A DNA stretch of 64,000 bases from a virus, in IMG/VR virus record IMGVR_UViG_3300045988_180769, positions 32,001-96,000 of that record; one strand, written 5' to 3'. This document shows, piece after piece, positions 11,400-59,660 of this stretch. The position numbers and the translations under genes are program-made. The notes beneath the pieces are model-generated. The model was not told the DNA's origin. It saw only the letters and a program-made list of their open reading frames with translations, and made no database searches. Every line of letters begins with the position of its first letter. Position 1 is the stretch's first letter.

Positions 11400-11400
11400 T

Positions 11401-14208: not shown

Positions 14209-17200
14209 TTAAAACCAATTTGGATACTGATCATGAAGATCTTGATATTCTGTTAAACTTGTACAATTATAATAGCAATTAGTATGAGCGATTTGACTCA
14301 TTGATGGGAAACCATCAAAAGTTAATTGGAATGCTGGATCAAACATAAATGGCATTGGTAGATCCAGATAAACTCCATATTTGTTATACAATTCACAATA
14401 TGGAGCGTTTATCAATTTCGAACAATTATAGAACAAATTGTTATAAGCCAAACAAGTTTTAAATAAGCCACTTGTTATTGTAGCATTCGAAATTGAATAT
14501 CCAAATGGATACTTATCCATATTAGTCAAGTTTATACATCCTGAAAACATTTCAACTACAGATTGAATACTATTGCTACTTGCTGGTATAATCGTTGAAC
14601 CAATTGTTCTTAGGTTTGTACAATTCTTAAAACATCCCACATAAGAAGCACATTTATCGCTAACAAAGTAATTACTTGGAATTGTCACAACGCCACTTCC
14701 TTCAAAAGTGCTTTGACATAATATAGCATCGTTGAGCTTTATATTATCAATATTCAAAAGAACTTTATTATCCATAAATGTTTGAACCCAAGAAATACTT
14801 AATGTTGCATGTACATTAAATGCATTCGAGCTTACTTGTGATAAGTTCGTACTCGCGAATGCCTGTGTAAATACAGCTGTATTTACATTTCCAATAAATG
14901 AATTAGACTGTAATGATGTTATTCCTGTACCTGCACAAAAATATGTCGCATCGCAATCACTTCCACTCATAAATGAAATTTGACATGGTGCACTTAGAGA
15001 TGTACATCTTCTAAACATTCCAATACAATTGATAATGTTTATGGCGTTTATATCAAATTGTATGCTCGTTAGAATAGAGCAATCTTGAAACATACTACCA
15101 ACAGTACATCCTTGTCCTGATGGTGAAATTTGTCCAGTTACATTTGTAATTTTTGTACCAGCAAAAGTCCTATAATAATTATCTACTCCATATCCACCAA
15201 GATAATTTGTAAGATTTATAGCTCCACTAATATTACTTCCTTCATAAGTAGAGATATAACTTGTTCCAAACGATAATTGATTCGAAGGAACACTCTTTAA
15301 TGAAGAGCAATTGAAAAAGAAGTAATCTGTACTACCAGATATCAATCCTGTTGTCCATGATGCAACTTCTGTCAATTTCGAACAATTTGCAAACGCTCTT
15401 TCTGTGAATGAAGTGGAAACCTTTGTTGTAAACCATTTAACCACTCTTCTTAATTGTGTTTGGAACGAAACTAATGGATATGGTTGGCCCCAGATCATTT
15501 GAACAGTTTGATCATTAAAATCAAAAGTGATCGTATAAGTTCCCATTGTTCCATATGTATGAGAAATTGTTCCAATTGTTTGAGATCCATCTCCCCAATT
15601 TACTCTTAAATTGCCCAATCCTGTTACAGAAGTATTCTGAATTGGTAATGATACTGGTTCGCCATTCGTAGAAGTTTGAATTTCTATTACAGCTCCATCT
15701 TCCATTGTAATATAAACAGTCTTTGAAGTTTCTGTTGGTCCTACTGTATATTGACCATTTACAGTGAAATAATATGGTGAAGTTGCACTATATCCATATA
15801 TATCACCAGCAGGTACATACCATTGAACTGTTCCTGATGTTCCAGTCACACCACTACTTATTCTATCAGTTACAGTCACACCACTAATTGGCTGACCAGC
15901 TGTGTTTCGAACATTGTATGTCACCATACATTTATTTCTTGGCATTACAACATTCACTGTAGTATCCATCTCTAAAACAGTTCCTGAACCACTTTGACTT
16001 TGATATGCATCTTTTGTCGCCTGCCATGAAAATGCTGTACCTGCTGGATAAGAACTAAAAATACAATAACCTGAACTACTTATGTAGTTTAATGTTCCAT
16101 TACATCTTATCGCTACATCAGAAAGATAATTACCTGAATCATCTCTTACCCAAAAAATAATCGAATAATATTTAGCCCCTAATTCAATAGGAAATATTGG
16201 TGTCGCCTTATTAACAGTAAAGAATGTAGTATTACTTGGATAAACTGGTAATTTACTCGCAGTACAAATCAATGAATTATCTGACATAGGAACATTATAA
16301 AATAATGCATTTCCATCAGCACCTGAAACTGAACTCGTATTATTAAAGTTTACACTCGCACCTTGAATTGCTCTTTGTGTTCCTCCATAATTCTCATAAC
16401 AAAAAATCGTAACTGTTGTAGTCTTTCTTATGAAAGTCAAATTTACAGTCATGTTATTATACACTGTAAAGTCAGATTCCAGATCTGTGAAATATGTTCC
16501 ATACTTTGCAATGTAATGATAAGTACCTGCTGCAAGTTGAACTACAACTCTACCATTGGCATCTGTTGCCACAGTAGTTTCTCCATCAATTGTTATCGAA
16601 GCACCCTCTAATGTGTTTTGTCCTTCTTTGGCAATAAAAGTCACATTATAAAGAACTGCATCTTTTTCTGTCAATCTTATAGTGTAGTTGTTTTGACCTT
16701 GTACAATGTTTAAATTTCCTGAATTAGGTTTGTAATCTGTATGTGATGCTGTCCAAGGCCAAGTACCAAGAATTAAACTCCAATTCCCTGCAATACCATT
16801 AATATTAGAATATTTTGTTTCTCCATTGATTGTAACTGCAGCATTATTTATCGCAGTGCTTGTTGCATTATCTACAACAGTAACTGTAAGAGTTCCTCTT
16901 GTTTTGGCGAGATCAACAACAATTGCGATTGACTGATTTGTCAAAACTGCTGTTCCTGTTTGAATATCGTATCCTGTTCTTGTTACTGACCAAGGATAAG
17001 CACCTGGAATCTTAGTAAATGTAACATTACCTCTACCATCTGTATTCAAAGTTTCCTCATTACTTCCTGAACCAACTACTACTGGTTGATTAACTACTGG
17101 CTGTCCATCAATTCGAACTGTAAATACGATATTATAGGTTATCAACTTCAATACAACATTCACTGTTTTATTGAAACTATTTACAATTACAACTCCTTGT

Positions 17201-25700: not shown

Positions 25701-28700
25701 ATACAACTGCGAAACTTATTGGAATGCCTAAGTATGCATCAAAAGATGCTGTACCTGTCGCGCTTAATGTTAATGTCCCATTTCCTGCTGCAGATGTATA
25801 ATTGATCGTCATTCCATTATAAGCAAACGATCCAGTCACTCCTGGAATAACCTCTGCAACACTAATTGTTACTGTTTGCTTAATTCTATATAGCAATACA
25901 TTTACTGGAGAAGTAGTTGTAGGAGTTATAGTTCCTTGTTTAGTATCGTATCCACTATCATCTACACTATAATCTTTTGTTAAAGCAGAACGATATAAAA
26001 CAGCGTTTCCTGATGCATTCGTTGTTACTTGTTGTGAATTCCAAGTTACTGTTGCTCCTTGTAAATTAGTACCAGCATATTGATCTTTTACATTAAATGT
26101 GATTTGAGCTGATACGTTCAAATTCATTGGCCAAATATATCCATCCTCTGTCCAAGTATAAGTTTGTGTTGGATTTGAATAAAAGTTTGGATAAGCATCT
26201 GTTGTAAATGTATATGGTAGCGTTTTGATCAATGTCATATTTGCATATCCATTCTCATCTAAGGTAATTGTAATTTCACCTGCCTTAGATGTCATTGTAA
26301 GAGTTTGGTCTGCTAAATAAGCACTTCCATTTGAACCAAAAATCTCTGACACCTGAATACCAGCATTAATCAATTCATACTTAACCTCAACATCAATAAC
26401 TGTTCCAGTAGAAGTTTGAGGATGAAAGAATGTTCCAGTTGTGATTTCACCAGCCAAAACTGCGTAACTGTAATTTCCAGTAAATACATCTGGAATAATT
26501 GTTAAACCATTTACATCAGTTGTTCCTTCATAAACAAGTGTTGACTTATCTTCATTGGTAATTCTTACTATGATTCCTTCTGGTGCTATAATACCTCCTG
26601 TAGAAACATTGAATGTAACTGGAAAGACTTGTGCTTTCAATGTAATATCCATTCTTGTTTCACTTCCAGTAGGAGTAAATGTCAATGTCGTTGTATCATA
26701 ATATTGAGCGCTTACTGTATAATTCATCGATATTGGTGAAAGATACATATAAACTATTCCATCACTATCTGTAGTTTGAGTTTGATCAACACTCATTCCT
26801 TTGAAGACAACAGTTGCTCCTGTTAATTCTCCATATTGATCACTTGTAACATAAACAGGTATTCTTTTTGAACAAGTATATGTTAAAATAGGAGTTTTGG
26901 CATCTGTGTTATTAAGTTTTACTACTGCTCCATTACCTTCATAAAAAACAACTGGTTGTACCTCAAATCTCTCAGGCAAACCAGCATAAATTGTTTTTGT
27001 GAATTGACCACTCGCGTTGGTCGTAACATTGGGTCCTGATGAAGTACCATTTTCATTGTAATAACATGCTAATACAAGACCAGCTTTGACAGGATTCGCT
27101 GTGGACGATATTAATGGCAGAATTTCTTTTACTGTCGCTGTGATAGAGAACGATCTTCTCGTAGCAATAATGCTCGTTGTTTTTTCTGTAGGTAGATAGA
27201 TATCTTTTGTTGCGACCTCATAATTTCCATTTGCATCTCCAACAGTGATTTTATAATTTCCAGGTGGAATATTAAATGTTCCATTTCCAAGAGTATTCAA
27301 TACACCATTGGCATTCGTTGTCCCTGTAAATGTATATTGTTGACTTGGTGTCCCACCCCAAGTACTTGATACTGTTACAGGACAAGATTCTGCAACATGA
27401 TTATATGGAACAGTATTACTTACTGTTAGATTAAATGTGATCTGTTCATATGTTAATACGAGATCAATATAATCATTCGTCAATGGAGGAGTAAATGTTC
27501 CAGTCAATACATTATGATCGGGGAATGTACAAGTGTAACCCATTGTTAATGGAGTAATATATACTTTCGCTGAACCATCTGATCCTGATGTAACAGTTTG
27601 ATCTAAACTCATTCCTGTTACAACTATCTCTGCACCTTCCAATGGTCTTAATGTATTTGCCTGTTTTACTCGAAGTTCTAATTGTTTAGAAGCTGTGATT
27701 TGCATATCAACAGGAAAATTTCCTTCGAAATTCCATGACATTATAAATAATCCATTGTTTGTATAGAAACCAGCTTCTGTGATTGTAAATTCATAAGAAA
27801 CTCCTGGAGTTATATCTGGAAAAATTGCTCCATTTTCATTAGTAGTATATTGCTTTGTTGTTCCATCGACAGTATTCTTTGCAGTTACCTTTAATCCTGA
27901 TTTAACTGGCATAAAACGAGAAGACTTTTGTTGAGTCAACTTTATATTTCCAGTTGATTGACTAACTTCTGTTGTAACTGTTAAATCAATATAACATTCT
28001 CTTGGTGTCGCGTCCCTTTTTAGTTCAACATTTTCAGCTACATTTATCTGAGTTCCTTCTAAAGTAGCAAATGGACTGGGTATGGGGATAATGTTTATAT
28101 CTAATCGAGCACCACCTAACAATAACCAATCGTATTCGACATTCAAACCTCCATCTTCTGGTCTTCTAAAAGTTTGAACCAAATCTCTCATGTCAAAAGA
28201 AATAGCACTGTTTGGAACAAGAATACTTTCAGGCATTCTTAAAACATAATAAAAACCATCATTTCCTAAGGCTTCTACTGATTTTACTCCTGATACTTTA
28301 ACTGTATCTTCATCTCCACTTACTCCTGGAATAAACTCTGTTAAATCAACTTCTGTATTAATGTCTTTTCTTTTCATTGTAAATGGCACCTCAATATCTT
28401 TGAGCTTTTCTAATGTAACATCTTGTGTCACTGAAATATACCATTTGTGAGTTGCAGTCCAAGTATAATCATCAGCCTCTGCTGATAAGGTTACTTGACC
28501 TAAAGCATTCGTTACTCCTGAAGTAACTTTCTCCATTGTACCTTTATTTACAAGATCAATGTTCACTCCTTCAATTACTTCTCCAGTTAATTGATCTGTG
28601 GCAATGAAAGTTACTTCTGTATCTCGAATTTGAATATAAATTGTTTCAACTACATCCTGATCTTTAATAGTAACTGTTCCAGTATATCTCTTATAATTAG

Positions 28701-43917: not shown

Positions 43918-44586
43918 TTATATTAAGTGTTTTTGTACTTTTGGTGAAGAAAGCGCTTTTTGAATTCTTTCCTGAATAGAATTAATATCTTTTTTATAAA
44001 TCCAAACATATCCATTACAAGAATTGAACTCTCCTTTGCAACATTTACCTATACTCATGTTATCAAATCCTAATTCTCTTTTAATTTGATTTCTACTATT
44101 CCAACTTTTAACAAAATTTCCCTTTAAATCATATTGCAACACTTCCTCTCTATTCTTATGACCTAAAGAAAGATTTAATTTTTCTTCTTCTGTATGAAGA
44201 ATCCCTTTGTTCCAGACTCCTTTTATTTTTGCTCTTAATTTGATTTTTTCAGAAATTGAATTTCGAACTTCTAATGTAGGATTACTTTGACCATCTCCTC
44301 CAAAAGTGTTGTTTGTTAAATTAAATCCAAAACTCTTATACAAAGCTATATAATGTATTTCCCAAAAATTAGAATCTGATTCTTCTACTATATCTATAAT
44401 ATTCATCAAAGGTCTAATATTTTGTTTTAAAAGAGATCTGATCCAAGCTAATTTTTTAGATGTAGTTTTGCATTCAGAATCATAAATATGTCTTTTTAAT
44501 CTTTGTTTAAGATTAATAGTCTTCCCAATGTAACGAATGTTGTTTTTAGGATACTCTAAACTATATATGAAAACTTTTCTTTCCAT
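43918..44586 (-). CDS. GIY-YIG homing endonuclease
   Basis: N-terminal VFIYSLEYPKNNIRYIGKTINLKQRLKRHIYDS (GIY...YIG...R...H). C-terminal putative DNA-binding part ends in CCKGEFNSCNGYVWIYK. Free-standing gene inserted among structural genes. Confidence 0.8.
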   Translation of the reverse strand: MERKVFIYSLEYPKNNIRYIGKTINLKQRLKRHIYDSECKTTSKKLAWIRSLLKQNIRPLMNIIDIVEESDSNFWEIHYIALYKSFGFNLTNNTFGGDGQSNPTLEVRNSISEKIKLRAKIKGVWNKGILHTEEEKLNLSLGHKNREEVLQYDLKGNFVKSWNSRNQIKRELGFDNMSIGKCCKGEFNSCNGYVWIYKKDINSIQERIQKALSSPKVQKHLI

Positions 44587-48341: not shown

Positions 48342-49124
48342 TTATTTCTTCGAATTCTGAACAAAATCGTTCAAAACATTTAAAGATATGCGACCCTCTA
48401 TGCATTTCTTATATAATGTCTTAAAGATTTCATCATTTATATTGTTAGTAGGTCTTACTCGAATGGAGAAGTCTTTGTCTATCGTAATGATATGACCATT
48501 CTTTTCCATTTCAAGTAAAACTTTTGTTGTCTTGAAATCTTTATCTGTTTCAAAATCATAATCAATATAATCCTTAGATTGTTTTCCTTTGACAATATCT
48601 GCAAACGCGTTTGCATTGACTGGCGTCATTGTCATAGCAACATTAGTAATGAGAGCTTTTGTGATTCTTTTAGGATTTTTCCTATCTCGTTCGAGAGCTT
48701 TTCCTTCAATACTGAAACCTGGTTTTCTGTCTGTACCTGATTCTTTCATTTCGAGAGCTTTATCGTAGAACGCTCTCGCTTCAGGAGATTTCTTCCAAAG
48801 TTGACATTTTACATAGAACTTATTATTATCAACTTTTGCAGACAATGGCGCACCAATCCAAAAACGAGATTTATTAATTGGTGATCGTGATGGTAAGTGA
48901 TCAAGATTGATCAAACCATGTTTGAGAAAACGATCAATGATGAAACCATTTGGCTCCATTGATTCACCTTCATCGTCTTCTTCATTATCAGAGGCCAATC
49001 CTTCGAAGATCATCTTCTCATATCTCCGATCATCCCCAATAGGAAAGTTCAGAGGATTAAAAGAATGTGACTTCTCAAAATCAGCCTCAGCAAAAAAATT
49101 AAATTTATCTCCTACGTGGAACAT
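48342..49124 (-). CDS. prohead serine protease (HK97/S78-like)
   Basis: IFEGLASDNEEDDEGESMEPNGF...INLDH, KPGFSIEGKALER and ITKALITNVAMTMTPVNANAF follow the S78 block order (His, Ser, C-terminal PxN). Confidence 0.7.
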   Translation of the reverse strand: MFHVGDKFNFFAEADFEKSHSFNPLNFPIGDDRRYEKMIFEGLASDNEEDDEGESMEPNGFIIDRFLKHGLINLDHLPSRSPINKSRFWIGAPLSAKVDNNKFYVKCQLWKKSPEARAFYDKALEMKESGTDRKPGFSIEGKALERDRKNPKRITKALITNVAMTMTPVNANAFADIVKGKQSKDYIDYDFETDKDFKTTKVLLEMEKNGHIITIDKDFSIRVRPTNNINDEIFKTLYKKCIEGRISLNVLNDFVQNSKK

Positions 49125-49134: not shown

Positions 49135-49983
49135 TCATAATCTCAACGAATTTATGAAAATGTCTATGTACTTATCAATCAACTCATGACACCTAACTCT
49201 ATTCCAGTCTTCTTCTCTTACTTTCTTCTTCATTCCCATAAGAGCACCAAATAAAGCTGCATTGGTATCAGTATCTTCTCCATAATTAATAACTTCACAT
49301 AAGTCTTCAAACAGAGAAGTTGACTTGTTTTCCTGAGCTAAATAATTATCAATCACGAGATTATATGTGTTGATCACATCACCCTTATTATCATAATCGT
49401 TTATCTCTACATTTTCAAGAGGCAAATCTCGCAACAATTTTTGAAATATGCAACAAAGTTTAGAAGCAAAATTGAAACATTTTATATTATTATGTGTATA
49501 CCCACAAAATAAATCCATTCTTTCTCTTATGACTTCTGGTGATTCCTCAAGAAAATAAATAGCCAAAGGTAATGAGTAAAACAATGCTCCATTTCCCATT
49601 CTGTCTGTTCTTGGGCAACCTCTCATTCTTATTGATTCAGAAGTTTGGTTTCCTATATCAAATAACTCTACACCTGCATTAAATTTTCCTTTATAATACC
49701 ATAAATTGAGGTTATTTTCATATCTCTTATGAATATCCATCAATCTTTTAGATGGGTATGAAAAGGCATCTATTAAACATAATAAAACAGATGTATCGTC
49801 TGACCACGTTCCTTCTATCTGTCTATGAACTCCTCCTGATGAAAAAGAAGAGCACTTAAAAGTGCCCTCTTTTTTAAATTCGAATGGAACTCCGAGTGCA
49901 TCGCCTAAAATGTAAGCTCGAATACTATTTCTTATTTTTTCTGTCTTCGTCATTCTCGAATTCTTTAAGATTCTTAACTGCAT
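49135..49983 (-). CDS. ADP-ribosylglycohydrolase (ARH/DraG family)
   Basis: IRAYILGDALGVPFEFK, GTWSDDTSVLLCLIDA and YGEDTDTNAALFGALMG are the family's metal-binding blocks. The start could instead be the ATG at 49953. Confidence 0.85.
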   Translation of the reverse strand: MQLRILKNSRMTKTEKIRNSIRAYILGDALGVPFEFKKEGTFKCSSFSSGGVHRQIEGTWSDDTSVLLCLIDAFSYPSKRLMDIHKRYENNLNLWYYKGKFNAGVELFDIGNQTSESIRMRGCPRTDRMGNGALFYSLPLAIYFLEESPEVIRERMDLFCGYTHNNIKCFNFASKLCCIFQKLLRDLPLENVEINDYDNKGDVINTYNLVIDNYLAQENKSTSLFEDLCEVINYGEDTDTNAALFGALMGMKKKVREEDWNRVRCHELIDKYIDIFINSLRL

Positions 49984-50089
49984 TGTTAACCATCTCTTCT
50001 GTTCCTTTTTTCTTCTCCTCTTCTGTAGGATTATGGACGATCGTTACTATACCAGGATCGCTCCATCTTGAATTTGTTTGATTTTCCAT
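49925..50089 (-). CDS. possible small protein (54 aa), below the track cutoff
   Basis: ATG at 50089 lies about 40 nt downstream of the -7-like box of the 33-nt promoter repeat, the same spacing as the confirmed-length gene behind copy A. Translation MENQTNSRWSDPGIVTIVHNPTEEEKKKGTEEMVNNAVKNLKEFENDEDRKNKK. Overlaps the ARH start. Confidence 0.35.
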   Translation of the reverse strand: MENQTNSRWSDPGIVTIVHNPTEEEKKKGTEEMVNNAVKNLKEFENDEDRKNKK

Positions 50090-50126
50090 CTTGAATTTGT
50101 TTTTAGTTATTGATCTTTTTCTTTAT

Positions 50127-50159
50127 CTAAAGATACACCTTTTGGACCAATGTAGCAAC
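50127..50159 (-). promoter_or_regulatory. promoter candidate, copy B of the perfect 33-nt repeat
   Basis: Identical to 5342-5374. The downstream leader (50090-50126) is also about 70 percent identical to 5301-5341. Confidence 0.55.
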
Positions 50160-50175
50160 GATTACTTGAAAAAGA

Positions 50176-52356
50176 TTACACTAATTCGACAACAATAGAA
50201 TTCGTTCCTTTCGCTACAACTTTATACTTACTGTTTCTTTGTACAACATATTCTAATTCTGCAATTTGATTATTAACATTAGATACTTTATCTCCTTTTT
50301 TGGCTAATAAAGTTATTTGAAGATCATTTCCAAATTGTTTTAAGTGCCTCAACGAAAACGAACTAAAACTCTTGTCTTCTATAATAGAACCAACTTCTGC
50401 ACTCAACCATTCATTTAAAATATTCAAATTAGATGGTTTTATTTCGACTCTTCTATTTAAAATTAAATTTTCTTCACAAGGATTTTTATTTATAAGTGAT
50501 TCAATCTTTTCCACTCTATCTGCAATAGAATCATTTTTAACTTGTCCATAATTATAATTTCTTATTGCACTATATTCTTGCCCCATATAAATTTTTATCG
50601 CTTTCAATTCTTGTTTTGTTGCGTTCAACTTTTCACCTTGTTTATCGTAATACTTTTGTGCTTCATACAAAAGTTCCTTAGAATCTAAATCAAAAGGTGC
50701 AACAAAATGTTTATATTCAACACCATTAAAATTGTGATATAAAACACCATTCGCAATTGGAAGATAACCTGATTCAACAAGCAACTTGTTTACTTCGACT
50801 CTTCCTTTTTCATGCATATGTCCATATTTTTCAAGAATCTTGTTAAAATTACGTTCTTCTATTGCTTCCTTAATTATTTCTATTGTAGACTCAAAATCTT
50901 TTTTCTCATTACCTTCCTTGAGTTTAAAATCTTCTACAGATTTAAACGCATCTTCTAATCGTTTAGATTGATCTTCATCGAGAGTGTTTGTTAATTTGTT
51001 TCTCTTTTCTGTATATTTATTAATTTCCTTTTTATTTTTAAAATGTAATCCATTAGAAGGGTTGTTATTTTCACCATCTTTTCCAGATTTTGATTCTTCA
51101 GTTCCTATCATAGCTATTGGTACATCATAAAGATTGGGACTATTTACTGATATATTGTTCTTGAGATTGGTAACTTTATATACTGTACTTCCATTATCAT
51201 TAGTCACTTTCTCTATGTGATACTTTTTACCATTACGCTCAACTTCAGCGATTCCTGAATTAAGAGCATCTTTAATTTTAGACCATTGGACAATACCTGA
51301 TCCAGGATTCGTCCAATTAACCTTTGTTATCGTTTTTGGCTTTTCTTCTGGTTTATCCTCTTCCTTTTTAGCATCTGGAATTTGATCTAACATCTCATTT
51401 CCTTTTTCTTTTGCTTCATCTAAACTATTTTGATAATTTGTCATAAGAACTTTCTTTCCATCACTATCAAATGCTTCAATTTTGTAGTGGGTTTTACCAA
51501 AAGAATTCTCTTCAGGTTCAATCGTTACGAAAGCACCTTTCTTTCCATTAAGTGTAACTGGCTTATTACTTACTTTTTCTTCCTTTTTAGGTTCTTCTTG
51601 TTTCTTTTCCTCTGGTTTTGGCTCTTTATCTTGTGTCTTCTCAAATTCTTCTTTAACCCTTTTCTTAAAATCAGCTAACGATTCATAAGGTTTCGATTCC
51701 ATATAAAAAGAACCTTTCTTTGTTTTATATTTATCGTCACCTTTCATGTTTAGAACAATTGTTTGTCCATTAGACTTAACATAGGTTTGAGTGATCTTTT
51801 TGAAACCATTCATCTCGTTAAGTTTGTTATCAATGTTCTCAGCAATCTCATTCTTTAACTTTTCAAGTTTAGAATCAAGTGTCTTTTCATCAAGTGGTTT
51901 TTGTTCTTCTTTCTTTTTCTTTGATTCAGCAATCTTATCTTTAATCTTGTTAAGCACCTCTTCATCCAGATCTAATTCACCTTTTTCTTGGGCATCAAGA
52001 ATTCTTTGAAGTGCTGAAGAAATACCAACTTCTTTATTCTCCTTATCACCTTTATTTTCTTCTGTTTTACCTTGTCTATTTTCAAGTTCTTTCTTTGCAG
52101 CTTCTCTTACTTCTTTTGGCGCATCCTTATCTTTTAATGCTGCATTTAACTGTTCATCACTCGCTTTAGAAGCATGTTCAGAATGATCAACCTTTTTATC
52201 TTTTGATGAGATTTCCTCTTCTTCAGAAGAATTCTTTCCTTTACCTTTTGGTTTCCATCCTGTTGCTGTTTTTATATAAACTTTACCTCCCCAAGTTTTC
52301 TCTGTTCCAACTGGAGATGCTTTCTTTGCCTTTTCAATCAAATCAATTAAATCCAT
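50176..52356 (-). CDS. Alt-like ADP-ribosyltransferase (726 aa; C-terminal R-S-E ART domain)
   Basis: The C-terminal ~150 aa read YMGQEYSAIRNYNYG, LILNRRVE (Arg), KSFSSFSL (STS-like) and QIAELEYVVQRNSKY (ExE). This matches the C3/VIP2/T4 Alt-type toxin fold signature. The N-terminal part is K/E-rich with low-complexity linkers. Confidence 0.8.
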   Translation of the reverse strand: MDLIDLIEKAKKASPVGTEKTWGGKVYIKTATGWKPKGKGKNSSEEEEISSKDKKVDHSEHASKASDEQLNAALKDKDAPKEVREAAKKELENRQGKTEENKGDKENKEVGISSALQRILDAQEKGELDLDEEVLNKIKDKIAESKKKKEEQKPLDEKTLDSKLEKLKNEIAENIDNKLNEMNGFKKITQTYVKSNGQTIVLNMKGDDKYKTKKGSFYMESKPYESLADFKKRVKEEFEKTQDKEPKPEEKKQEEPKKEEKVSNKPVTLNGKKGAFVTIEPEENSFGKTHYKIEAFDSDGKKVLMTNYQNSLDEAKEKGNEMLDQIPDAKKEEDKPEEKPKTITKVNWTNPGSGIVQWSKIKDALNSGIAEVERNGKKYHIEKVTNDNGSTVYKVTNLKNNISVNSPNLYDVPIAMIGTEESKSGKDGENNNPSNGLHFKNKKEINKYTEKRNKLTNTLDEDQSKRLEDAFKSVEDFKLKEGNEKKDFESTIEIIKEAIEERNFNKILEKYGHMHEKGRVEVNKLLVESGYLPIANGVLYHNFNGVEYKHFVAPFDLDSKELLYEAQKYYDKQGEKLNATKQELKAIKIYMGQEYSAIRNYNYGQVKNDSIADRVEKIESLINKNPCEENLILNRRVEIKPSNLNILNEWLSAEVGSIIEDKSFSSFSLRHLKQFGNDLQITLLAKKGDKVSNVNNQIAELEYVVQRNSKYKVVAKGTNSIVVELV

Positions 52357-52375
52357 AAGACTGCTTTTAAAAGTG

Positions 52376-52400
52376 TTGGCGAACCATAAAGATTCGCCAA
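52376..52400 (-). terminator. hairpin (weak terminator candidate) between the Nudix and ART genes
   Basis: Perfect 8-bp stem TTGGCGAA/TTCGCCAA with a 9-nt loop. The minus strand continues CACTTTTAAAAG, a short and displaced T-tract. Confidence 0.3.
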
Positions 52401-52407
52401 TGTTATA

Positions 52408-54159
52408 TTAATGCATTTGTAAACGATACTTGGTTTGCATCAAATCTCCAAGAAAATCTTCAATCCAAGACATTTCACCAAGATAATCAATATTATCTTT
52501 TATAACCTCATGAAAATCTTGTGTTCGCTTAATAATCAAATCTACAAGTTCTATAGGATCATTCACATTAATTTCTTCACCTACAATTTCACCTTCTTTA
52601 AATCGACCAAACTTGCTTTGACCTGCTTCCATCACTCGATCTTCGTAATCAGAAAGTGTATCTTCGAGATCATCGAGATATTCATGTTTAGAATTATCTA
52701 ACTCACCCCAATGAACATTCTTTGTACGAGTTTTTGCTCCTTCAATAAAATTAGCAAAATCAGCAAATAAACCAGACATCATGTCTTCAGCTTTTTCGAT
52801 TGTCTCAACAGAATCAATATCAAGTTTACCAGACTTTTTCATTTCATTAATCAATGATTTAAACATATCAGCCTGATCAAGATCGTTGAAGTTAATTGTC
52901 AATGAAAAACCATTTGTAGACTTTTTAATACCATCGTCATCTGGTTCTTTTTCTTTATCATCAAGATGTTCTTTACAGATTGTATTTGCATCGTCACAAT
53001 CCATTGTCTTTTCAACATCATCGTGATCGCCCCAACTTTCAGGAAGTTCATCTGTAAGTCCAAGTTCTTTCGCTCTTTTCTTAATCCATGCCTTTACTTC
53101 ACTATCAGGCATTGAAGAAGCTCCTACAAGTCGTATAGCATCTTTTAGATCTTGACTGTTGCGAATTGGATATTTTCCATTTGACATCGCTTCGCCTTTC
53201 TTGGCGAGATCTTTTCTTTCTTTATGAGAAAAATATGTCTTATTGTTAGCTTTTTCAATCTCCTCAGGATGTTTGTCACAATATGCTTTGAACACATTCT
53301 GTGAAATTACACCATCATTGAAAGCTTTTTGTATTTTCATCAAAGGACTGGGTTGAATTTCAAGTCCAAGAATTCTTTTAAGATTATCCTTCATATCAAA
53401 AATGAAATCATAATCGTCCAATTCTGTTCCAGGATAAATCCATTCAGCTCCAATTTCCTCTTCGCTATCAACTAAAACTGTTGTAGGAGAATCGTCATCT
53501 ACATGACCCATAAAATAATGAATGATGCAATCTTTTGATTCAGCGACAGCAACTTCCATTAATGTATCTTCTGGTACTTCAATTCCTGTCTCTTCAAAAA
53601 GTTCTCTACATGCTGCTTCACGATAATCTTCACCAGCATCTACATGACCTCCAGGAATGCACCATTCTTGTGTATTTCCTCCCATAACACCAGCTCTCTG
53701 TAAGATCAATAATTTATCTCCTCTAAAAAGCAATACGTCTGCATAACGAATCTTTCCAGTCTTTGCTTTAATGATATCGTTATATACAGATTTTGAAATC
53801 CTTTTGTTTTTGTAGGATTGTTTTGCATCATGAAGAATTTTCAAGTCAACAATTGCATCGAAAATCTCTTCATCGTTTTCAAGTCTATTCATCGACTTTT
53901 CAATCTGTGATTTTTCTTTTTGCAACTTTGCTACTTTCTTTGCATGTTCTGTCAAAAAGGAGTTATGTCGATCTCGAACTTCTTTTCTCTCTTCAGTTCC
54001 TAAAAGCGATATACTCTTTAAGATTTCACTTTGTTCAAGAAATTCCTGAGACATTTCTTCAACTTTATTGTCAATGTCTACAGACTTCTTCAATAATACT
54101 TTGTATTCACCAATCTTCTCTTGTGCTGATTGGAGATTTAATATTTTTCTGATATTCAT
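52408..54159 (-). CDS. multidomain protein: coiled coil, Nudix hydrolase domain, C-terminal Dps/ferritin-like domain
   Basis: Nudix box GGHVDAGEDYREAACRELFEETGIEV (about 53585-53660). The C-terminus KNVHWGELDNSKHEYLDDLEDTLSDYEDRVMEAGQ...EMSWIEDFLGDLMQTKYRLQM follows the Dps helix pattern (HW...H...D..(A)E...W(m)L). Confidence 0.75.
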   Translation of the reverse strand: MNIRKILNLQSAQEKIGEYKVLLKKSVDIDNKVEEMSQEFLEQSEILKSISLLGTEERKEVRDRHNSFLTEHAKKVAKLQKEKSQIEKSMNRLENDEEIFDAIVDLKILHDAKQSYKNKRISKSVYNDIIKAKTGKIRYADVLLFRGDKLLILQRAGVMGGNTQEWCIPGGHVDAGEDYREAACRELFEETGIEVPEDTLMEVAVAESKDCIIHYFMGHVDDDSPTTVLVDSEEEIGAEWIYPGTELDDYDFIFDMKDNLKRILGLEIQPSPLMKIQKAFNDGVISQNVFKAYCDKHPEEIEKANNKTYFSHKERKDLAKKGEAMSNGKYPIRNSQDLKDAIRLVGASSMPDSEVKAWIKKRAKELGLTDELPESWGDHDDVEKTMDCDDANTICKEHLDDKEKEPDDDGIKKSTNGFSLTINFNDLDQADMFKSLINEMKKSGKLDIDSVETIEKAEDMMSGLFADFANFIEGAKTRTKNVHWGELDNSKHEYLDDLEDTLSDYEDRVMEAGQSKFGRFKEGEIVGEEINVNDPIELVDLIIKRTQDFHEVIKDNIDYLGEMSWIEDFLGDLMQTKYRLQMH

Positions 54160-54201: not shown

Positions 54202-54618
54202 TTATATCTGATCACTTTTTATGCAAATATTATTCACATAAAGCGTTTTACCCTTTTTTAATTGAATGCTATAAAAGAAACGATTAACAGTTTCCATCTT
54301 CTCAATTCTATCAACAATTGCCACATCTCCATTCCTGTGTAACATTGAGTCTCCAATTGTAAGATCTTTAACTATCGTTCCATCAAGTAATTCTTGATCT
54401 CCTGAAATACGATCTATCACTCCTTCTTCATTGAAAGTGTGATAATACACATTATAAACTGCATCTCGTGGTTTCGCCAATCGTTGATTTATCAACTTGA
54501 CTTTAGAAAATGACTTTCTGTCAGTTAGGATCAAATCATTTGGTTTGATATCTTTTAAGAACTTATCACCTTCGATTGTCCTTATTTCTACAAAGTTCGA
54601 ATTAAATCCACCTTTCAT
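54202..54618 (-). CDS. free-standing degenerate Hint (mini-intein-like) domain protein, 138 aa
   Basis: Block A-like FVEIRTIEGDKFLKDIKPNDLILT. Block B-like RISGDQELL (TxxH replaced by SGDQ). TIVKDLTIGDSML. Block F/G-like FFYSIQLKKGKTLYVNNICIKS (no HN). No Cys1. Confidence 0.55.
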   Translation of the reverse strand: MKGGFNSNFVEIRTIEGDKFLKDIKPNDLILTDRKSFSKVKLINQRLAKPRDAVYNVYYHTFNEEGVIDRISGDQELLDGTIVKDLTIGDSMLHRNGDVAIVDRIEKMETVNRFFYSIQLKKGKTLYVNNICIKSDQI

Positions 54619-54620
54619 GT

Positions 54621-55178
54621 TTATTCATGTATTATTGTTCCTATTCCATATTCATCAATCCTCAGACCATATTCTATAGGAGCTATGATATTATAAAGTT
54701 CTCCTTTGTACTCTTCTTCTTTGATTTCGAGCTTCTCTACTTTCTTATAACAATAATGACTTTTTTCTCTATGCGACATGTGTTCAGCCATATCTTCAAT
54801 ACTACCATCTATCGCATCTTGATTTAATTCATAGCTCCATCCTTCTATCGTTGTTAAGATTTCGTCATCTTCAAATTCATCTATAGACTTTTCGTTAATG
54901 ACAGGATACTTTGCTCCTGGAAGATATTTACATGCGAATAACTTTTGATCTTTACAATATGTAATGGTGGCATTTGTTTTTGACAACACTCCATTGTATT
55001 GCCCTGATACAATCTTTACAGGATAAAAACAAAAGCTCATTGAAGGAAGATGATACATTTGAATATAGTCTCCTTCTTTAACATCTTTTATTTTAATTTG
55101 TTCCCATCTAACAGGTTCGAGTTCATCATCTCCCTTTACGAGAACATATACTATCGTATCTCCTATATATCCTATCAT
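54621..55178 (-). CDS. free-standing degenerate Hint-like domain protein, 185 aa
   Basis: N-terminal IVYVLVKGDDELEPVRWEQIKIKDVKEGDYI. Block B-like YCKDQKLF, sharing DQ.L with the 138-aa paralog. C-terminal ELYNIIAPIEYGLRIDEYGIGTIIHE ends the protein where inteins have HN. ATGA overlap with the MuF gene. Confidence 0.5.
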   Translation of the reverse strand: MIGYIGDTIVYVLVKGDDELEPVRWEQIKIKDVKEGDYIQMYHLPSMSFCFYPVKIVSGQYNGVLSKTNATITYCKDQKLFACKYLPGAKYPVINEKSIDEFEDDEILTTIEGWSYELNQDAIDGSIEDMAEHMSHREKSHYCYKKVEKLEIKEEEYKGELYNIIAPIEYGLRIDEYGIGTIIHE

Positions 55179-57148
55179 ACCTCAAAAGTTTTATCTCCAA
55201 CATATATTTTAACTTTACTTCTTCTCTCGATCTTTCTTTCATAGTTTTTAGGAGGAACAAACATTTTCTCTTCATCGCTCCAAACATATCCTTTTGGAGT
55301 ATATCGAAGTTGACAGCGACAATTACCTGAAATGCAAATTTTACCATTTCTCCTAATTATCAATGTATGATTCTTCTCAAGTTCAACATCGTAGATGTAT
55401 CCATTATAATCAATTTCTTTTGGTTGTAATGCTTCACTTATGGCTGTTGTATTAAAACATTCATCAATATAAATTTGATCAAATTTGGATGTATATGTTT
55501 TTTGATATTTTTTGTCATACACAACAACTTTACCTGTATTTCGATAAGAAGGTCTTTTACCTATTTTCAAAATAAGTTCACCGATATCGTCAGCCAATCT
55601 TGGACTTGAAGTTGAAAATACTCTATTATCTTTACATTTATATCCATCCCAATCTCTTCCTTTGCGAATTGAACCATCTCCTAATCTAAATGCTTCTAAA
55701 AAGATTTCAATACATTCTTTATTAAGTTCTTTGATGTTCTGTGGTATAAACTTATCGTGTGAATGACCAAATTGTTTCATATAATCCCAAAGCTCATCTT
55801 GATCACCTCTATAAAGTCTAATTTCTATATAATTGGAGCATTTATTTGCATTTGGAAATAATTGAACACAACAATCAAACATTTTTTGCAAATATTTCTC
55901 CTTACTTTGAGCGATATGAATTCTTCTGCTACCATATTCCACTGTTGATCCTTCAGATAAAAAATATCCCATAAATTCACAAAACAGTTTTGAATCATAT
56001 TCTCTCTTATCAAAAACAAATGATTTTACTGATTCACCTTTCCAATTTGGAATACTTCTCAAAAACCTCGTACTTTTAAAGATATCTTTTTCTGTTCCTA
56101 AAAACCATTTGAAATTACTTTTAGCTATCACATGATTATGGTTTGGAGTTGTCATTAAAGAAAATGATTTATGTTCTCTTAATAACATTTTTCCTTCATA
56201 TTTTTCTTCGATCCAACCTATAGCTTTACACCATTCACCATTTCCATCTTCAAGATTAATGGAGAGGAAATTTTCATCTTTATTTAAATCTTTAAAGAAT
56301 TTAAAACCTTCATTGGTTAGTACTTCTGTTTTATCGTCATAACAAAATGGATGTACAGGTCCGAGCGTTGGTTTCCAATTAGCAACTTTTACACCAATAT
56401 TGTCTCCATTTGCTATTAAATCAATCAATTTGAAAAGCCTTGGTTTTGTTCCAATTCCTCCAGTTGTATATAATCGAATACAATGTTTACACGCTCCAGG
56501 AAAGACCTCTTTGTACACTATTGCTTCAGAACCATGTTCTTCCATAATAGTTTGTGCCATTCCAATTTGATAAATATCCTGAAGTTCTGTCTCAACTATT
56601 CTTCCCCAATCTCTATTCCAATCGTTTAATGAATGACCAATATTACTCACAATATTTTGAACACTCTTTTTCTTTAAAGTTCCTTCAAGAATTTCTTTTT
56701 TAATCGTAGAGTGTTCTAATTGTCGCTGTGTCTCCATTAGAAGGTTTATTTCTTCTTGTGAAACAGCGTTAGTAATAATATCCTTCATTCTTTGTCCCAT
56801 ACTCTTTATATAAGAGTAAGTTCGAGTTGCTGCAGCATTATAAACTGCTTTCTCATGTGTAGATAATGTTTTAAACTGTTTTTTATCTATGAACAAAGAA
56901 AAGTCATGATAATCTAAAGATCTTAATTGAGATGGTGATAAAACTGAAGATAATCTTCCAAAAAGAAAAGATTGATAATATGGAGGTATCTTGTGAAGTT
57001 CGTTCTTCCAATTGTATCTATTCTTTATCAATAAATCTTTATCCTCAGGAGTAAGAAGACCAACTCCAAGGACATCAGCGACAATCTTTGCTAATCGAAA
57101 GTCAACTATTGAAAACAACTGTTGTATATCTTCAGGACTAAATATCAT
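55175..57148 (-). CDS. MuF/SPP1 gp7-like minor head (morphogenesis) protein interrupted by an intein
   Basis: The extein parts give PGACKHCIRLY...GPVHPF|CRCQLRY, i.e. the C..C...HP.CRC motif of MuF-family proteins. Located right after the portal gene. Confidence 0.75.
   Translation of the reverse strand: MIFSPEDIQQLFSIVDFRLAKIVADVLGVGLLTPEDKDLLIKNRYNWKNELHKIPPYYQSFLFGRLSSVLSPSQLRSLDYHDFSLFIDKKQFKTLSTHEKAVYNAAATRTYSYIKSMGQRMKDIITNAVSQEEINLLMETQRQLEHSTIKKEILEGTLKKKSVQNIVSNIGHSLNDWNRDWGRIVETELQDIYQIGMAQTIMEEHGSEAIVYKEVFPGACKHCIRLYTTGGIGTKPRLFKLIDLIANGDNIGVKVANWKPTLGPVHPFCYDDKTEVLTNEGFKFFKDLNKDENFLSINLEDGNGEWCKAIGWIEEKYEGKMLLREHKSFSLMTTPNHNHVIAKSNFKWFLGTEKDIFKSTRFLRSIPNWKGESVKSFVFDKREYDSKLFCEFMGYFLSEGSTVEYGSRRIHIAQSKEKYLQKMFDCCVQLFPNANKCSNYIEIRLYRGDQDELWDYMKQFGHSHDKFIPQNIKELNKECIEIFLEAFRLGDGSIRKGRDWDGYKCKDNRVFSTSSPRLADDIGELILKIGKRPSYRNTGKVVVYDKKYQKTYTSKFDQIYIDECFNTTAISEALQPKEIDYNGYIYDVELEKNHTLIIRRNGKICISGNCRCQLRYTPKGYVWSDEEKMFVPPKNYERKIERRSKVKIYVGDKTFEV
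55322..56344 (-). mobile_element. intein (341 aa) with LAGLIDADG endonuclease domain inside the MuF-like gene
   Basis: Begins CYDDKTEVLTNEGFKFFKDL (Cys1, block A). Block B MTTPNHNHVIA. LAGLIDADG motifs FMGYFLSEGS and FLEAFRLGDGSI. Ends YDVELEKNHTLIIRRNGKICISGN followed by +1 Cys. Confidence 0.85.
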
Positions 57149-57348: not shown

Positions 57349-59082
57349 TTATTTCCATAAGTTCTTTTGATAATACTCAATCGCTGGTTGAAGAATAGGA
57401 TTATCCATTGATTTATACTTATCAAATGGATTTTCTTCTTCCATTCCAAAATCACCCTCACCTTCTTCTCCTGGAACGCCCTCTTCTTGACTTTGTCCTG
57501 GAACAGAAGCTCCAAACATTTGTTGCTGTTGTTCAGTTTGTTTTGCAGTTTGGTAAACTTGATTGATAATAATATCTTTTTCTGGATCAAATGGCCTTCC
57601 TGAATATTTTTGAAAAATATCCTGCATTGCCACCATACCTTTATCAAGTTTATCCATATCTAATTTTACTTGTGCTTCTTCATCTTCAACCTCTATTCCA
57701 GTAAAAGCGAATTCCCAGTCTTCATCAAGTTCACTAACAATGTATTTTGTAATAATGTTCTCAAGGAAAATCAATATTGGTTTTAGACCTTTCTCTCTAC
57801 TATGTTGCAATCGAGCTTTTTGACCATCCTGTCCAAATATTTGTGCCTGATCTTTAAACTGAAAACCAAGTTCTGTGGGGTCCATTCGATAAACAGCGCA
57901 TCCTATAATAATCAAGAATTTGAGCCATTCGTTGAACTCCATGTCTCGATTGTTCTTTTGAAGATCAATCCATTCCAGATCAATACCATTTATAACAGGT
58001 ACTCTATGAGAGTTTTGAACTCCTCTCATTGTTTGAGTCCATGCCTGTCTAAATTCGTTTAATGTAGAATTAGAGATGTTCTGGTTCTTTACATTCACAA
58101 AGCCCTTTGGTTGAGAACCTTGTGAAAAGAAGTTACCATTATATTGCATACCCCACAATATCCAAGTAATGATCTCAACAAGTGTTTCAAGTTCACTCGT
58201 TCCATAACCATTCTTTCGAATATTAGAAGTTTTGTTTCTTATTCCAAATCCAAGTTCCCATGGATAATACAAGATTGATTCTTGTGTCACTGGATTTTTT
58301 AAGATCATATCTTCCCATACCATACAATATCTTGGTAGGTAACCTTTGAATCGATACTCTTCATAATTATCCCTTTGTCTTGGATCGACTGTATCTAAGA
58401 ACCTAATCAAAGATGCATCTACAGCTCTAAACTTCTCTAACTCCCAATTTCTATTTCGAAGAAGTTCGAATGCTAATTGATCAAGTGTCAAGCTATCAAA
58501 AGTAATCTTTCTAATGAAATCTTGAAATCCATCGATATTGTCCCATTTCTCATTCCAACCACCATTCTCAAGAAATTCGACAATCTTTTCGACCTTTCTC
58601 TTATCTTCGTCAGAAAGATCGTTTGCATTCTTTTCTTGAAAAAGACCTTTTTTCTTTCTTATAGTGTATCCTTCTTTTTGTTCATCTTCTGAGAAATGCA
58701 AAAAGTTTTGAACCTGCTCTATTCGAGTATTAACAATAGCACGAATGATATAAATATCACCCATCTTACGAAGAGACTCAAAAGAAAGAACACTCTTTTG
58801 ACTCTTAAATCCTTTACCATTTCCAGTAAAGTCATTTGGATCAAAAAAGATTGATTGTATATGCTTTGGTGCCTTATTTACTTCACCAAGATAAACATTC
58901 GCTTTGAATATCTCTGTAGGATCATTTGAATTCAATGATGCCTGTAATTTACTTTGAAATGCCATTGGTGCTGCTTTTTGCAGTCTATCGATTTCTTCTA
59001 AAGAAAGATCGGCCAAACTTGTAATAAAATCTGGCCTATCTATTCTTTGAGCATTGTTTCTTTTTCTTCTTTTACTTCCCAT
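57349..59082 (-). CDS. portal protein
   Basis: About 577 aa. The central region GYGTSELETLVEIITWILWGMQYNGNFFSQGSQPKGFVNV...EFRQAWTQTMRGVQNSHRVPVINGIDLEWIDLQ...MEFNEWLKFLIIIGCAVYRMDPTELGF follows the portal-family pattern. An acidic C-terminus follows. The track start at 59121 is TTG, so the ATG at 59082 (MGSKRRKRNN) is preferred. Confidence 0.8.
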   Translation of the reverse strand: MGSKRRKRNNAQRIDRPDFITSLADLSLEEIDRLQKAAPMAFQSKLQASLNSNDPTEIFKANVYLGEVNKAPKHIQSIFFDPNDFTGNGKGFKSQKSVLSFESLRKMGDIYIIRAIVNTRIEQVQNFLHFSEDEQKEGYTIRKKKGLFQEKNANDLSDEDKRKVEKIVEFLENGGWNEKWDNIDGFQDFIRKITFDSLTLDQLAFELLRNRNWELEKFRAVDASLIRFLDTVDPRQRDNYEEYRFKGYLPRYCMVWEDMILKNPVTQESILYYPWELGFGIRNKTSNIRKNGYGTSELETLVEIITWILWGMQYNGNFFSQGSQPKGFVNVKNQNISNSTLNEFRQAWTQTMRGVQNSHRVPVINGIDLEWIDLQKNNRDMEFNEWLKFLIIIGCAVYRMDPTELGFQFKDQAQIFGQDGQKARLQHSREKGLKPILIFLENIITKYIVSELDEDWEFAFTGIEVEDEEAQVKLDMDKLDKGMVAMQDIFQKYSGRPFDPEKDIIINQVYQTAKQTEQQQQMFGASVPGQSQEEGVPGEEGEGDFGMEEENPFDKYKSMDNPILQPAIEYYQKNLWK

Positions 59083-59093
59083 CGCTCTTTTCT

Positions 59094-59660
59094 TTATGCA
59101 GTCGTACCAGCTTGTGTACAATTGACAACCATTTCTTTGTTTGAAACATCCTGAACATATGTCACTGAACCAATCTTTTCAGTTGGATCTGCATTCGCTG
59201 CCATAGTGATGGAATCATTGTTCACTGTTACATTAACAAGATTGGTTGTTGTATAATCAACATTTTCAGGGTCGCCTTCTGGTTCGCCATTAATCGTCTT
59301 CTGTCGAGTAGAAACGATCGTTACTTGTTTGGTCTCTCCTGTATTAACAAAACTTAATGTTGTTGGTGTCACTGTAAAGGTGTATTCAAACTCCTCTTCA
59401 ATATCTACCAATATTTGAGCTTTATCGTTTAATCCCTCAGGATAGGAAAGTAATTTAAAAGGACCAATAAGAGCCCATTCTTTAAATCGACCAATATTAT
59501 AAGTCATTCCTGGTTCTATGACTATTCCAAGTGATTTGAAATAATCCACATCTCCAACTGTGTTTTCTGTAACAAACACATTCAACTGACTGTCAATACC
59601 ATCAGTAATCACAGTCAGTTGTTTGGAGTTATCTATATTAGTGAATAAAAGTCTTAACAT
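59094..59660 (-). CDS. hypothetical protein with a C-terminal Ig-like segment; paralog of 59670-60227
   Basis: Shares LTVITDG/TLVTDG, VFVTEN/IFITES and YPEGLND/TPEGLNN with the neighbour. The C-terminus TFTVTPTTLSFVNTGETKQVTIVS is Ig-like. Confidence 0.5.
   Translation of the reverse strand: MLRLLFTNIDNSKQLTVITDGIDSQLNVFVTENTVGDVDYFKSLGIVIEPGMTYNIGRFKEWALIGPFKLLSYPEGLNDKAQILVDIEEEFEYTFTVTPTTLSFVNTGETKQVTIVSTRQKTINGEPEGDPENVDYTTTNLVNVTVNNDSITMAANADPTEKIGSVTYVQDVSNKEMVVNCTQAGTTA

Follow-up and report, generated by a model that had tools for sequence, protein, structure and literature searches.

The head-morphogenesis region of an uncultured phage, present in a 64,000-nt stretch of IMG/VR record IMGVR_UViG_3300045988_180769 (the window; all coordinates refer to this whole stretch, with position 1 its first letter), encodes an ADP-ribosyltransferase (ART), a conserved 54-aa open reading frame (ORF) that we designate s54, and an ADP-ribosylglycohydrolase (ARH), preceded by a gene for a Nudix protein. 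Every gene between 42 and 60 kb of the window lies on the minus strand, and in the order of transcription the region consists of genes for the portal, a 66-aa ORF, a MuF-like protein (657 aa, with an intein), 185-aa and 138-aa ORFs, the Nudix protein, the 726-aa ART protein, s54, the ARH, the prohead protease, a scaffold-like protein, and the major capsid protein (MCP; phrog_752). An original prediction, made from the sequence alone, described the Nudix, ART, and ARH genes as three consecutive genes forming a trio. The ORF coordinates (54159..52408, 583 aa; 52356..50176, 726 aa; 49983..49135, 282 aa; all minus) and all of the motifs quoted there are exact, and the trio indeed lies between the portal/MuF genes and the protease, with the portal gene (57349..59121, minus; PF04860, phrog_12) upstream and the prohead maturation protease gene (48342..49124, minus; phrog_1028, E 3.8e-38) forming the downstream edge. 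The order of the three genes stands, but their strict adjacency does not, as s54 lies between the ART and ARH genes. By comparing related phages, we find that the ART, s54, and ARH genes constitute an accessory cassette that occupies a polymorphic cargo slot ahead of the protease gene and is gained and lost as a block, next to a Nudix gene that belongs to the core of the head module.

The G+C content of the window is approximately 33%, and with the locus as query, megablast found no match in a set of 50,697 phage records. The MCP is 71% identical to that of an unannotated human-faecal phage contig and approximately 34% identical to those of Bacteroides phages, and many gut-metagenome contigs of 100-108 kb carry homologues of the window proteins. 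The source is probably an uncultured gut myovirus of approximately 105 kb with a Bacteroidales host.

The ADP-ribosyltransferase and its putative effector protein

The 726-aa protein (50176..52356, minus; 419 homologues) has the architecture of a polyvalent-type effector: an N-terminal module that we call N1, Lys/Glu-rich linkers with small beta-rich repeats, and a C-terminal ART domain (aa 515-726; 50179..50814, minus) of the R-S-ExE (C2/C3/VIP2/Alt-like) type. In isolation, the C-terminal 212 aa match ADPrib_exo_Tox (PF03496; E 2.9e-10, 40.3 bits against a cut-off of 23.4). Searching 1.84 billion representative proteins exhaustively, we recovered 108 relatives, and from these drew a diverse alignment of 42 sequences for the analysis of conservation and for a profile. 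Against the Protein Data Bank (PDB), this profile matches VIP2 (E 6.5e-28), BECa, CDTa, C2-I, iota Ia, and C3 (to E ~1e-9), as well as Lmo0066 and Tre1, and in the profile alignment the Arg, S-x-S, and E-x-E elements are in register with those of the solved ARTs.

The prediction of an ART was based on three motifs, LNRRV (aa 633-637), FSSFSL (aa 664-669), and ELEYVVQR (aa 700-707), and its catalytic residues are aligned as expected of the family. Arg635 of LNRRV (50452..50454, minus) is invariant in the 42 homologues and aligns with the arginine of the VIP2 YRW motif; Ser666 (50359..50361, minus), the first serine of the STS-type S-x-S in FSSFSL, is conserved in at least 90% and aligns with VIP2 YMSTSL (both codons were checked); and E700-L-E702 (50251..50259, minus), the ExE of the ADP-ribosylating turn-turn (ARTT) loop, aligns with VIP2 EKE, with E702 invariant and E700 conserved in at least 90%. 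An AlphaFold model of the domain built on the 42-sequence alignment has a predicted local distance difference test score (pLDDT) of 93.4 and a predicted template modeling score (pTM) of 0.90; with 11 close sequences instead, the pLDDT is 44. Foldseek searches with the model recovered C3, VIP2, and CDTa at E ~1e-11, and also C2-I and Lmo0066 (probability 1.00, TM score 0.6-0.7). In BFVD the matches include close relatives named "Mono-ADP-ribosyltransferase C3" (virome entries), members of the Alt family, and fusions of ARTs to MuF, portal, or minor capsid proteins. A tblastn search of the domain against the 50,697 phage records found nothing. Taken together, the motifs, profile, and structural model identify the C-terminus of the 726-aa protein as a true R-S-ExE ART, with predicted transferase activity. 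Because the E-x-E form of the ARTT loop is common in, and typical of, arginine-modifying ARTs (PMC8120803), arginine is the predicted acceptor, a specificity that fits the Tri1-like ARH encoded downstream.

The ADP-ribosylglycohydrolase

The ARH gene (49135..49983, minus) encodes a 282-aa member of the ARH/DraG/Tri1 family (PF03747, E 1.7e-24, 87.4 bits against a cut-off of 26.2; phrog_6572, E 3.7e-30), with the motifs GDALGVPFEF at residues 27-36, SDDT at 61-64, and GEDTDTNA at 235-242. Its true start is probably Met11 at 49953, because a 100%-identical database protein has 272 aa. Across 15 phage orthologues the motifs GD[AV]LG..E, WSDDT, THNN, and DTDTNAA show no variation, and the active-site motifs are largely kept in a set of 12 sequences with identities down to 39%; from what is known of DraG and ARH3, we take the acidic residues in these motifs to be the ligands of the binuclear metal center. 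The best matches among solved structures are Tri1 (6dre_A, E 3e-12) and Lmo0067 (8za7_A, E 5e-12), both of them immunity hydrolases of ART-ARH pairs. The best NCBIfam model is likewise that of the Tri1 ADP-ribosylarginine hydrolase (NF041672), with a score of 59.7 bits that lies below the equivalog cut-off of 490. We conclude that the phage protein is an ARH by its predicted mode of action and not an orthologue of Tri1.

ARHs are rare in phages: only 38 of the 50,697 records contain one, each with less than 30% identity, and a 2022 survey (Iyer et al. 2022, PMC9503650) likewise describes such domains (there ARG) as rare in phages. Approximately 300 homologues were found at E 1e-5 or better, of which those with at least 40% identity are mostly on long contigs. 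PADLOC reported a generic Nudix match in the locus and nothing for the ART or the ARH.

The small ORF s54

The conserved 54-aa ORF s54 (49925..50089, minus; motif SRW[SNT]D ... TEEE) directly follows the ART gene and overlaps the longest-ORF start of the ARH gene. An ORF of 49-58 aa occupies this position in every ART-bearing locus examined, and is called as a gene in relatives; in the alignment, most copies have SRW[SNT]D followed by a TEEE-rich helix. As is also the case for N1, there is no Pfam entry for it. A family hidden Markov model (HMM) detects the window copy and those of 17 other ART-bearing loci at E below 1e-17, and among 5,940 six-frame ORFs its only other report is an ORF directly upstream of an ARH homologue in a Parabacteroides-type element (L023, E 0.005; see below). 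The same s54-like ORF in a second copy of that element (L025) is found at E 2e-4. The small ORF is tied to the ART more consistently than is the ARH, and MuF polymorphic toxins are followed by a small putative immunity ORF in 89% of cases (PMC5576092), an arrangement that s54 mirrors. It is a candidate for a stoichiometric partner or inhibitor of the ART.

The ARH gene is always in the +1 frame relative to s54 and overlaps it, and we considered a programmed frameshift that would fuse the two products. In the ARH-less locus L018, however, the ORF in the s54 position overlaps the protease gene in the same manner and frame, and ordinary translational coupling is therefore more likely. In one relative (L010), an insertion of approximately 2.3 kb (about 9830-12170) separates the small ORF from the ARH gene.

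A polymorphic cargo slot next to a core Nudix gene

To place these genes in context we surveyed relatives anchored on the MCP, of which IMG/VR contains 263, and compared the 71 loci with a complete MuF-to-MCP region. The gene order from portal to MCP is identical in L001-L014 wherever the locus sequence reaches, and is the same in the more distant L015 and L019, the ART domains of which are 45% and 35% identical to that of the window. What lies between the Nudix gene and the protease varies. The slot is empty in 30 of the 71 loci, holds an unrelated 344-aa protein in 21, a PBECR1-N1 protein in one, and the ART gene by itself in one; the remaining 18 contain ART, s54, and ARH, and in 11 of these the ART protein bears a fused PBECR1. 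The ARH gene is thus found in 18 of 71 loci, all of which also encode the ART and s54, and neither ARH nor s54 occurs in any of the 52 loci that lack the ART. In MT835500, the Nudix gene is kept and ART, s54, and ARH are missing together.

The 344-aa cargo protein (for example, at 7313-8347 of L032; 20 other loci) alternates with the empty state and accounts for most of the 20 slot changes on the capsid tree; because of this frequent switching, the gene behaves like a mobile one. An N1 motif that seemed visible in this protein by eye is given no support by the N1 profile.

The Nudix gene (52408..54159, minus) encodes a 583-aa protein with a coiled-coil-like N-terminus, a Nudix domain (aa 138-241; 53437..53748, minus), a linker, and a DUF5856-like C-terminus. 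The Nudix box, GHVDAGEDYREAACRELFEETGI (aa 171-193, at 53581-53649), which lies within the originally quoted stretch (aa 170-195), perfectly fits GX5EX7REUXEEXGU, and, like the ARH, the domain exceeds its Pfam threshold (PF00293, E 2.8e-17, 63.4 bits against a cut-off of 21.1), bearing out both original assignments. PHROG matches of the protein are to Nudix families, including a portal-Nudix fusion family. The C-terminal helical region (52420..52692, minus) matches DUF5856 (PF19174) as an isolated segment with E 6.6e-5, which is under the Pfam cut-off, and phrog_858 weakly; the precomputed PF19174 match is unmarked in one orthologue and weak in three. The best NCBIfam subfamily models, RppH first, then MutT, NadM-Nudix, and NudE, all score far under their cut-offs and assign no substrate class. 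A proline 15-16 residues after the Nudix box is the signature of ADP-ribose pyrophosphatases (ADPRases); by eye, the 583-aa protein has no proline at that position.

The Nudix/DUF5856 gene is present in all 71 relatives, including the 52 without an ART and the 53 without an ARH, and is therefore a core gene of the head module rather than an accessory of the writer and eraser. The survey that had been suggested as a check on the conservation of the trio thus separates it into a universal component and a cassette found in 18 of 71 loci, and the trio does not hold as one functional unit. The protein is probably virion-associated, given the PHROG portal-Nudix family, the head-linked Nudix domains described in the 2022 survey (PMC9503650), and the existence of Nudix-ART fusions, which make up 10 of 106 ART cluster representatives and share the N-terminal region of the window Nudix protein.

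These data also bear on the possibility that the three enzymes form a pipeline in which the ART uses NAD+, the ARH frees ADP-ribose, and the Nudix enzyme converts it to AMP and ribose-5-phosphate, so that host NAD+ is rewired or drained. The three chemistries can be chained on paper, and the Nudix-ART fusions in 10 of the 106 clusters would bring two of them together. We nevertheless regard such a pipeline as very improbable: the Nudix gene persists in all of the ART-less and ARH-less relatives, its substrate class is unassigned, NAD+ salvage genes were not seen in the locus, and Nudix-ART fusion lineages such as L018 have no ARH. The earlier suggestion that the Nudix enzyme disposes of ADP-ribose or NAD-capped species accordingly stays a guess.

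A different role could be envisaged for the ARH, in which it has no ART partner and is an offensive or counter-defence enzyme, packaged or expressed, that erases ADP-ribosylation imposed by host defences or degrades ADP-ribose-derived signals. Its location in the head module is compatible with this, its rarity and low identity among phage records suggest a specialized role, and the 2022 survey proposes phage ADP-ribose-processing enzymes as acting against host NAD+/ADP-ribose immunity (PMC9503650). In the surveyed phages, however, the ARH is always accompanied by the ART, and where the one is lost so is the other; it is a compact single domain without N1 or linkers; and its best named matches are immunity hydrolases for arginine-linked ADP-ribose. 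Bacterial defence ARTs known so far, DarT and CmdT among them, act on nucleic acids and not on arginine. We judge this role to be decidedly unlikely.

Recurrence in an unrelated phage and in Parabacteroides elements

The arrangement recurs outside this phage group. On a 120-kb contig (L024, 7140-9756), an unrelated, siphovirus-like head module contains a 525-aa fusion of Phage_min_cap2 (MuF-type) and ADPrib_exo_Tox, an 88-aa ORF, and an ARH, directly upstream of the scaffold and capsid genes. By its gene content, this locus is an independent example of the ART, small ORF, and ARH arrangement.

The ARH and a homologue of s54 also occur in the absence of an ART. An ARH with 48% identity to that of the phage (P0265, labeled Parabacteroides by NCBI) is encoded in an integrative element of approximately 6.4 kb (L023, 3787-10255), which is bounded by perfect 67-bp direct repeats and has host TonB-receptor genes on either side. 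The element encodes, in order, an integrase, HTH_17, Phage_CRI, and T5orf172 proteins, an 87-aa ORF, the s54-like ORF of 119 aa, and the ARH. The same element, with 96% nucleotide identity and no ART, is present in the isolate Parabacteroides faecalis AGMB00274 (L025, NZ_JAKZMM010000016.1); it is found on many gut contigs, and its ARH is listed in 96 blocks of the collection. A variant in a metagenome-assembled genome of an uncultured Parabacteroides (L026, 6902-10317; CALUZR010000035.1) has two tandem ARHs, the second of which has lost metal-binding aspartates (WSGNT, GENTNTNAA) and may be a pseudo-enzyme or decoy. These are followed by a 338-aa protein with MuF_C (E 4e-20) and then an N1 motif. 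The Parabacteroides elements also point to the Bacteroidales as the host range, and it is possible that their s54-like gene and ARH act against this family of ARTs from the side of the host or a satellite.

The N1 module and domain fusions

The N1 module occupies aa 1-60 of the 726-aa protein (52177..52356, minus; consensus KAkKgxPiGTektWgGKxYiKTaxGWkPkgKg). It is 69% identical among relatives, which is above the rest of the protein, is present in 26 of the 106 ART cluster representatives, and occurs in up to approximately four copies in homologues. It is also found after PBECR1 alone (L093), as well as after MuF_C in the variant Parabacteroides element. This distribution makes N1 a candidate trafficking or anchoring module common to different cargo proteins. 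The window protein itself has one recognized enzymatic domain and contains no MuF, Phage_Mu_F, or Phage_min_cap2 domain; among its orthologues are PBECR1-ART, Nudix-ART, and double-ART proteins. An N-terminal PBECR1 is found in many of the 419 homologues, and some of the 106 ART cluster representatives have two ART domains.

The fusions bear on whether the ART, s54, and ARH genes might instead be a toxin-antitoxin or superinfection-exclusion moron that occupies a permissive slot and acts inside the infected cell, rather than virion cargo. The cassette is indeed accessory, being found in 18 of 71 relatives; the order of toxin, small ORF, and eraser is typical of toxin-immunity loci; and the nearest solved ARHs are immunity proteins. 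On the other hand, the 726-aa protein shares its N1 and linkers with fusions to PBECR1, MuF_C, and Nudix that are characteristic of injected polyvalent proteins, an ART of the same family is joined to a MuF-type capsid protein in the unrelated phage, and the cassette lies without a terminator inside the late head operon (terminator-like sites were absent from the intergenic regions between the head-module genes, the few found being within ORFs). A moron is, in our view, unlikely.

Other features of the head module and genome

The MuF-like minor head protein gene (55175..57148, minus; Intein_splicing, LAGLIDADG_3) is interrupted by a 341-aa intein (55322-56344) with a LAGLIDADG homing endonuclease, inserted exactly at HPF|CRC; with the intein removed, the HPFCRC motif is restored and the protein matches phrog_115 (minor head protein) at E 9e-4. 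Relatives of this gene either bear the intein (672 aa) or lack it (316 aa), and some have a portal intein instead. The terminase large subunit (Terminase_6C; 7818-10523, minus) contains an intein as well (Hom_end_hint and LAGLIDADG_3), so that at least two packaging or head genes of this phage are intein-bearing. Between the MuF-like and Nudix genes, the 185-aa and 138-aa ORFs (54202-55178, minus) are conserved, have no family match, and diverge quickly, with 34-57% identity where the capsid protein has at least 84%.

Elsewhere in the window, a giant ORF of 3766 aa (19702-31002, minus) has an N-terminal Baseplate_J domain and CarboxypepD_reg repeats, and a second of 1812 aa (14209-19647, minus) has CarboxypepD_reg repeats; jointly they occupy approximately 17 kb of the ~105-kb genome. 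Amid the head and tail genes, a 222-aa ORF (43918-44586, minus) has an N-terminus (IYSLEYP..IRYIGKT..LKQRLKRH) that by eye resembles a GIY-YIG homing endonuclease, and the relative L001 has a PF01541 gene at the matching position. A promoter scan was uninformative (58 sites, with 58.8 expected). No integrase or lysogeny genes were noticed in the window, most of the ORFs of which the scan did not cover.

A proposed role for the cassette

We consider it reasonably probable, though by no means certain, that the cassette specifies a virion-delivered, arginine-specific ART effector together with s54 and the ARH as its cognate safeguard. The locus would then have two layers, the core Nudix/DUF5856 gene and an accessory effector in the polymorphic slot. 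The N1 module and the long charged linkers would carry the C-terminal R-S-ExE ART, which would be made late, with the head proteins, built into the prohead, and later ejected along with the DNA. Once inside the next host, it would mono-ADP-ribosylate arginines of host proteins at an early stage of infection, in the manner of T4 Alt. In the producing cell, s54 would bind or inhibit the ART and the ARH would remove ADP-ribose from arginine, the two keeping the ART harmless or its effects reversible, or limiting the duration of its action. Two functional suggestions made at the outset are thus partly upheld by genomic context. That of a packaged effector is consistent with the position in the head module, the PBECR1 and Nudix fusions, and the MuF-ART protein of the unrelated phage. 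That of the ARH as a reversal or self-protection enzyme is consistent with its Tri1 and Lmo0067 matches and with its occurrence only alongside the ART among the 71 relatives; what does not stand is that it be obligatory. The moron, counter-defence, and NAD+ pipeline explanations rank below this model because they are less consistent with the fusions and with the pattern of presence and absence.

Several observations weigh against the effector-and-safeguard model. The full-length 726-aa protein has no Pfam or PHROG match, and its best phmmer match to C2-I has E ~2e-3; we suspect that the charged linkers are behind the missed match to PF03496. No capsid-targeting sequence or protease site is recognizable in it, and the N-termini offer no argument for one; the upstream gene is only weakly assigned to MuF. 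The co-occurrence of ART and ARH (18 of 19 loci against none of 52) might be read as strong statistics; we do not use it so, since it reflects only about two changes on the MCP tree, essentially one clade, and is thus weak as independent evidence. Four loci (L016, L017, L018, and L096) have an ART with no ARH in the locus sequence examined, and from this distribution the ARH appears to be dispensable in some ART-bearing lineages. The small ORFs of L018 and L019 have no homology to s54 recognizable by the family HMM, and a comparison of s54 with solved structures returned designed helical repeats, at E above 0.5, and nothing else, with no homologue of known function. The alignment of the ARH with Tri1 begins at residue 15 of the phage protein and residue 70 of Tri1, and the approximately 14 residues ahead of its conserved core, compared with approximately 70 in Tri1, therefore leave no room for a Tri1-like N-terminal extension, the part that reportedly occludes the active site of the toxin in the Tre1-Tri1 pair. 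Finally, T4 Alt is not known to need an immunity protein.

The missing extension could have a counterpart in the neighboring gene, and we hypothesize that the separate small ORF substitutes for it. It is conceivable, if speculative, that s54 and the ARH form a two-part anti-ART module, inhibitor and eraser, in effect a split Tri1, used by the phage on its own ART and by the ART-less Parabacteroides elements against an incoming effector, whether for an anti-effector defence based on an eraser or for a satellite strategy.

Relationship to known systems

The individual ingredients of this locus are known: head-packaged ARTs, MuF-ART toxins, polyvalent proteins, head-linked Nudix domains, and ART-ARH pairs have all been published (PMC5512222, PMC5576092, PMC9503650, PMC8120803). 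T4 Alt belongs to the same ART clade (Alt/VIP2, R-S-ExE) as the window protein and its family is among the Foldseek matches; both are from myoviruses, encoded with late or virion genes, and arginine specificity is predicted. Unlike Alt, of which the tblastn search of the 50,697 phage records indicates that it is not an orthologue, the window protein is of the polyvalent type with an N1 module, has a small ORF and an ARH encoded alongside it that T4 lacks, and is predicted to be packaged from its gene position and the fusions of its relatives. Its orthologues have the modular repertoire of the polyvalent proteins (Iyer et al. 2017, PMC5512222), including PBECR1-ART, Nudix-ART, duplicated ART, and MuF_C-N1 combinations, and its gene is near those for the portal, MuF, and protease, as for head-packaged enzymes of this kind; it differs in belonging to the R-S-E clade, from which the ART family of the 2017 paper is distinct.

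MuF polymorphic toxins (Jamet et al. 2017, PMC5576092) similarly combine a conserved N-terminal part with a variable C-terminal toxin, a small downstream ORF, and a polymorphic slot. The EFV toxin is a MuF-ART (PMC5576092), and in the unrelated siphovirus-like module a literal fusion of MuF-type protein and ART precedes a small ORF and an ARH. In the window, by contrast, the ART gene is three genes downstream of the MuF-like gene and not fused to it, and an enzymatic eraser is present besides the small ORF. MuF toxins have been reported only in temperate phages (PMC5576092).

Adjacent R-S-E ART and ARH genes are shared with Tre1-Tri1 (6dre, 6drh), Lmo0066-Lmo0067 (8za7), and DraT-DraG, the first two of which supply the two best solved matches of the ARH and some of those of the ART. 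The phage pair differs in that its ARH is without the Tri1-like extension and its context is the capsid instead of a type VI or type VII secretion system. In the part of the 2022 survey available to us (PMC9503650), ARH and ART are paired only as a toxin-antitoxin system in Aeromonas phages, not in a head module. Among the relatives, the Nudix-ART fusions couple an arginine-directed ART with a putative cutter of the ADP-ribose pyrophosphate, as Legionella SidE couples a mono-ADP-ribosyltransferase and a phosphodiesterase in one polypeptide; the folds and contexts are different and the likeness is purely one of analogy. Nudix enzymes can trim protein-linked ADP-ribose to phosphoribose, according to the portion of the source available to us (PMC4680915), and it is conceivable, although less likely, that in the fusions the Nudix domain does so with ADP-ribosylated arginine in a SidE-like manner, locking the modification against erasers.

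In the searchable literature we found no description of an ART, small ORF, and ARH cassette in a polymorphic head-operon slot, of its recurrence in an unrelated MuF-ART phage, of the N1 module, or of an ART-less, small ORF-like gene with an ARH in Parabacteroides elements.

If the proposed model is true, phages of a common human-gut family use the capsid to deliver an arginine-specific ART and carry their own antidote, and the writer of protein ADP-ribosylation would be found in the Bacteroidales together with its inhibitor and eraser, as a natural system for study. The polymorphic slot before the protease and the N1 module provide handles for finding further injected effectors and immunity genes. 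Defence against phage-imposed modification by erasers has been predicted (PMC9503650), and the presence of ARHs in the Parabacteroides elements suggests that a host or satellite may protect itself through the erasure of such a modification.

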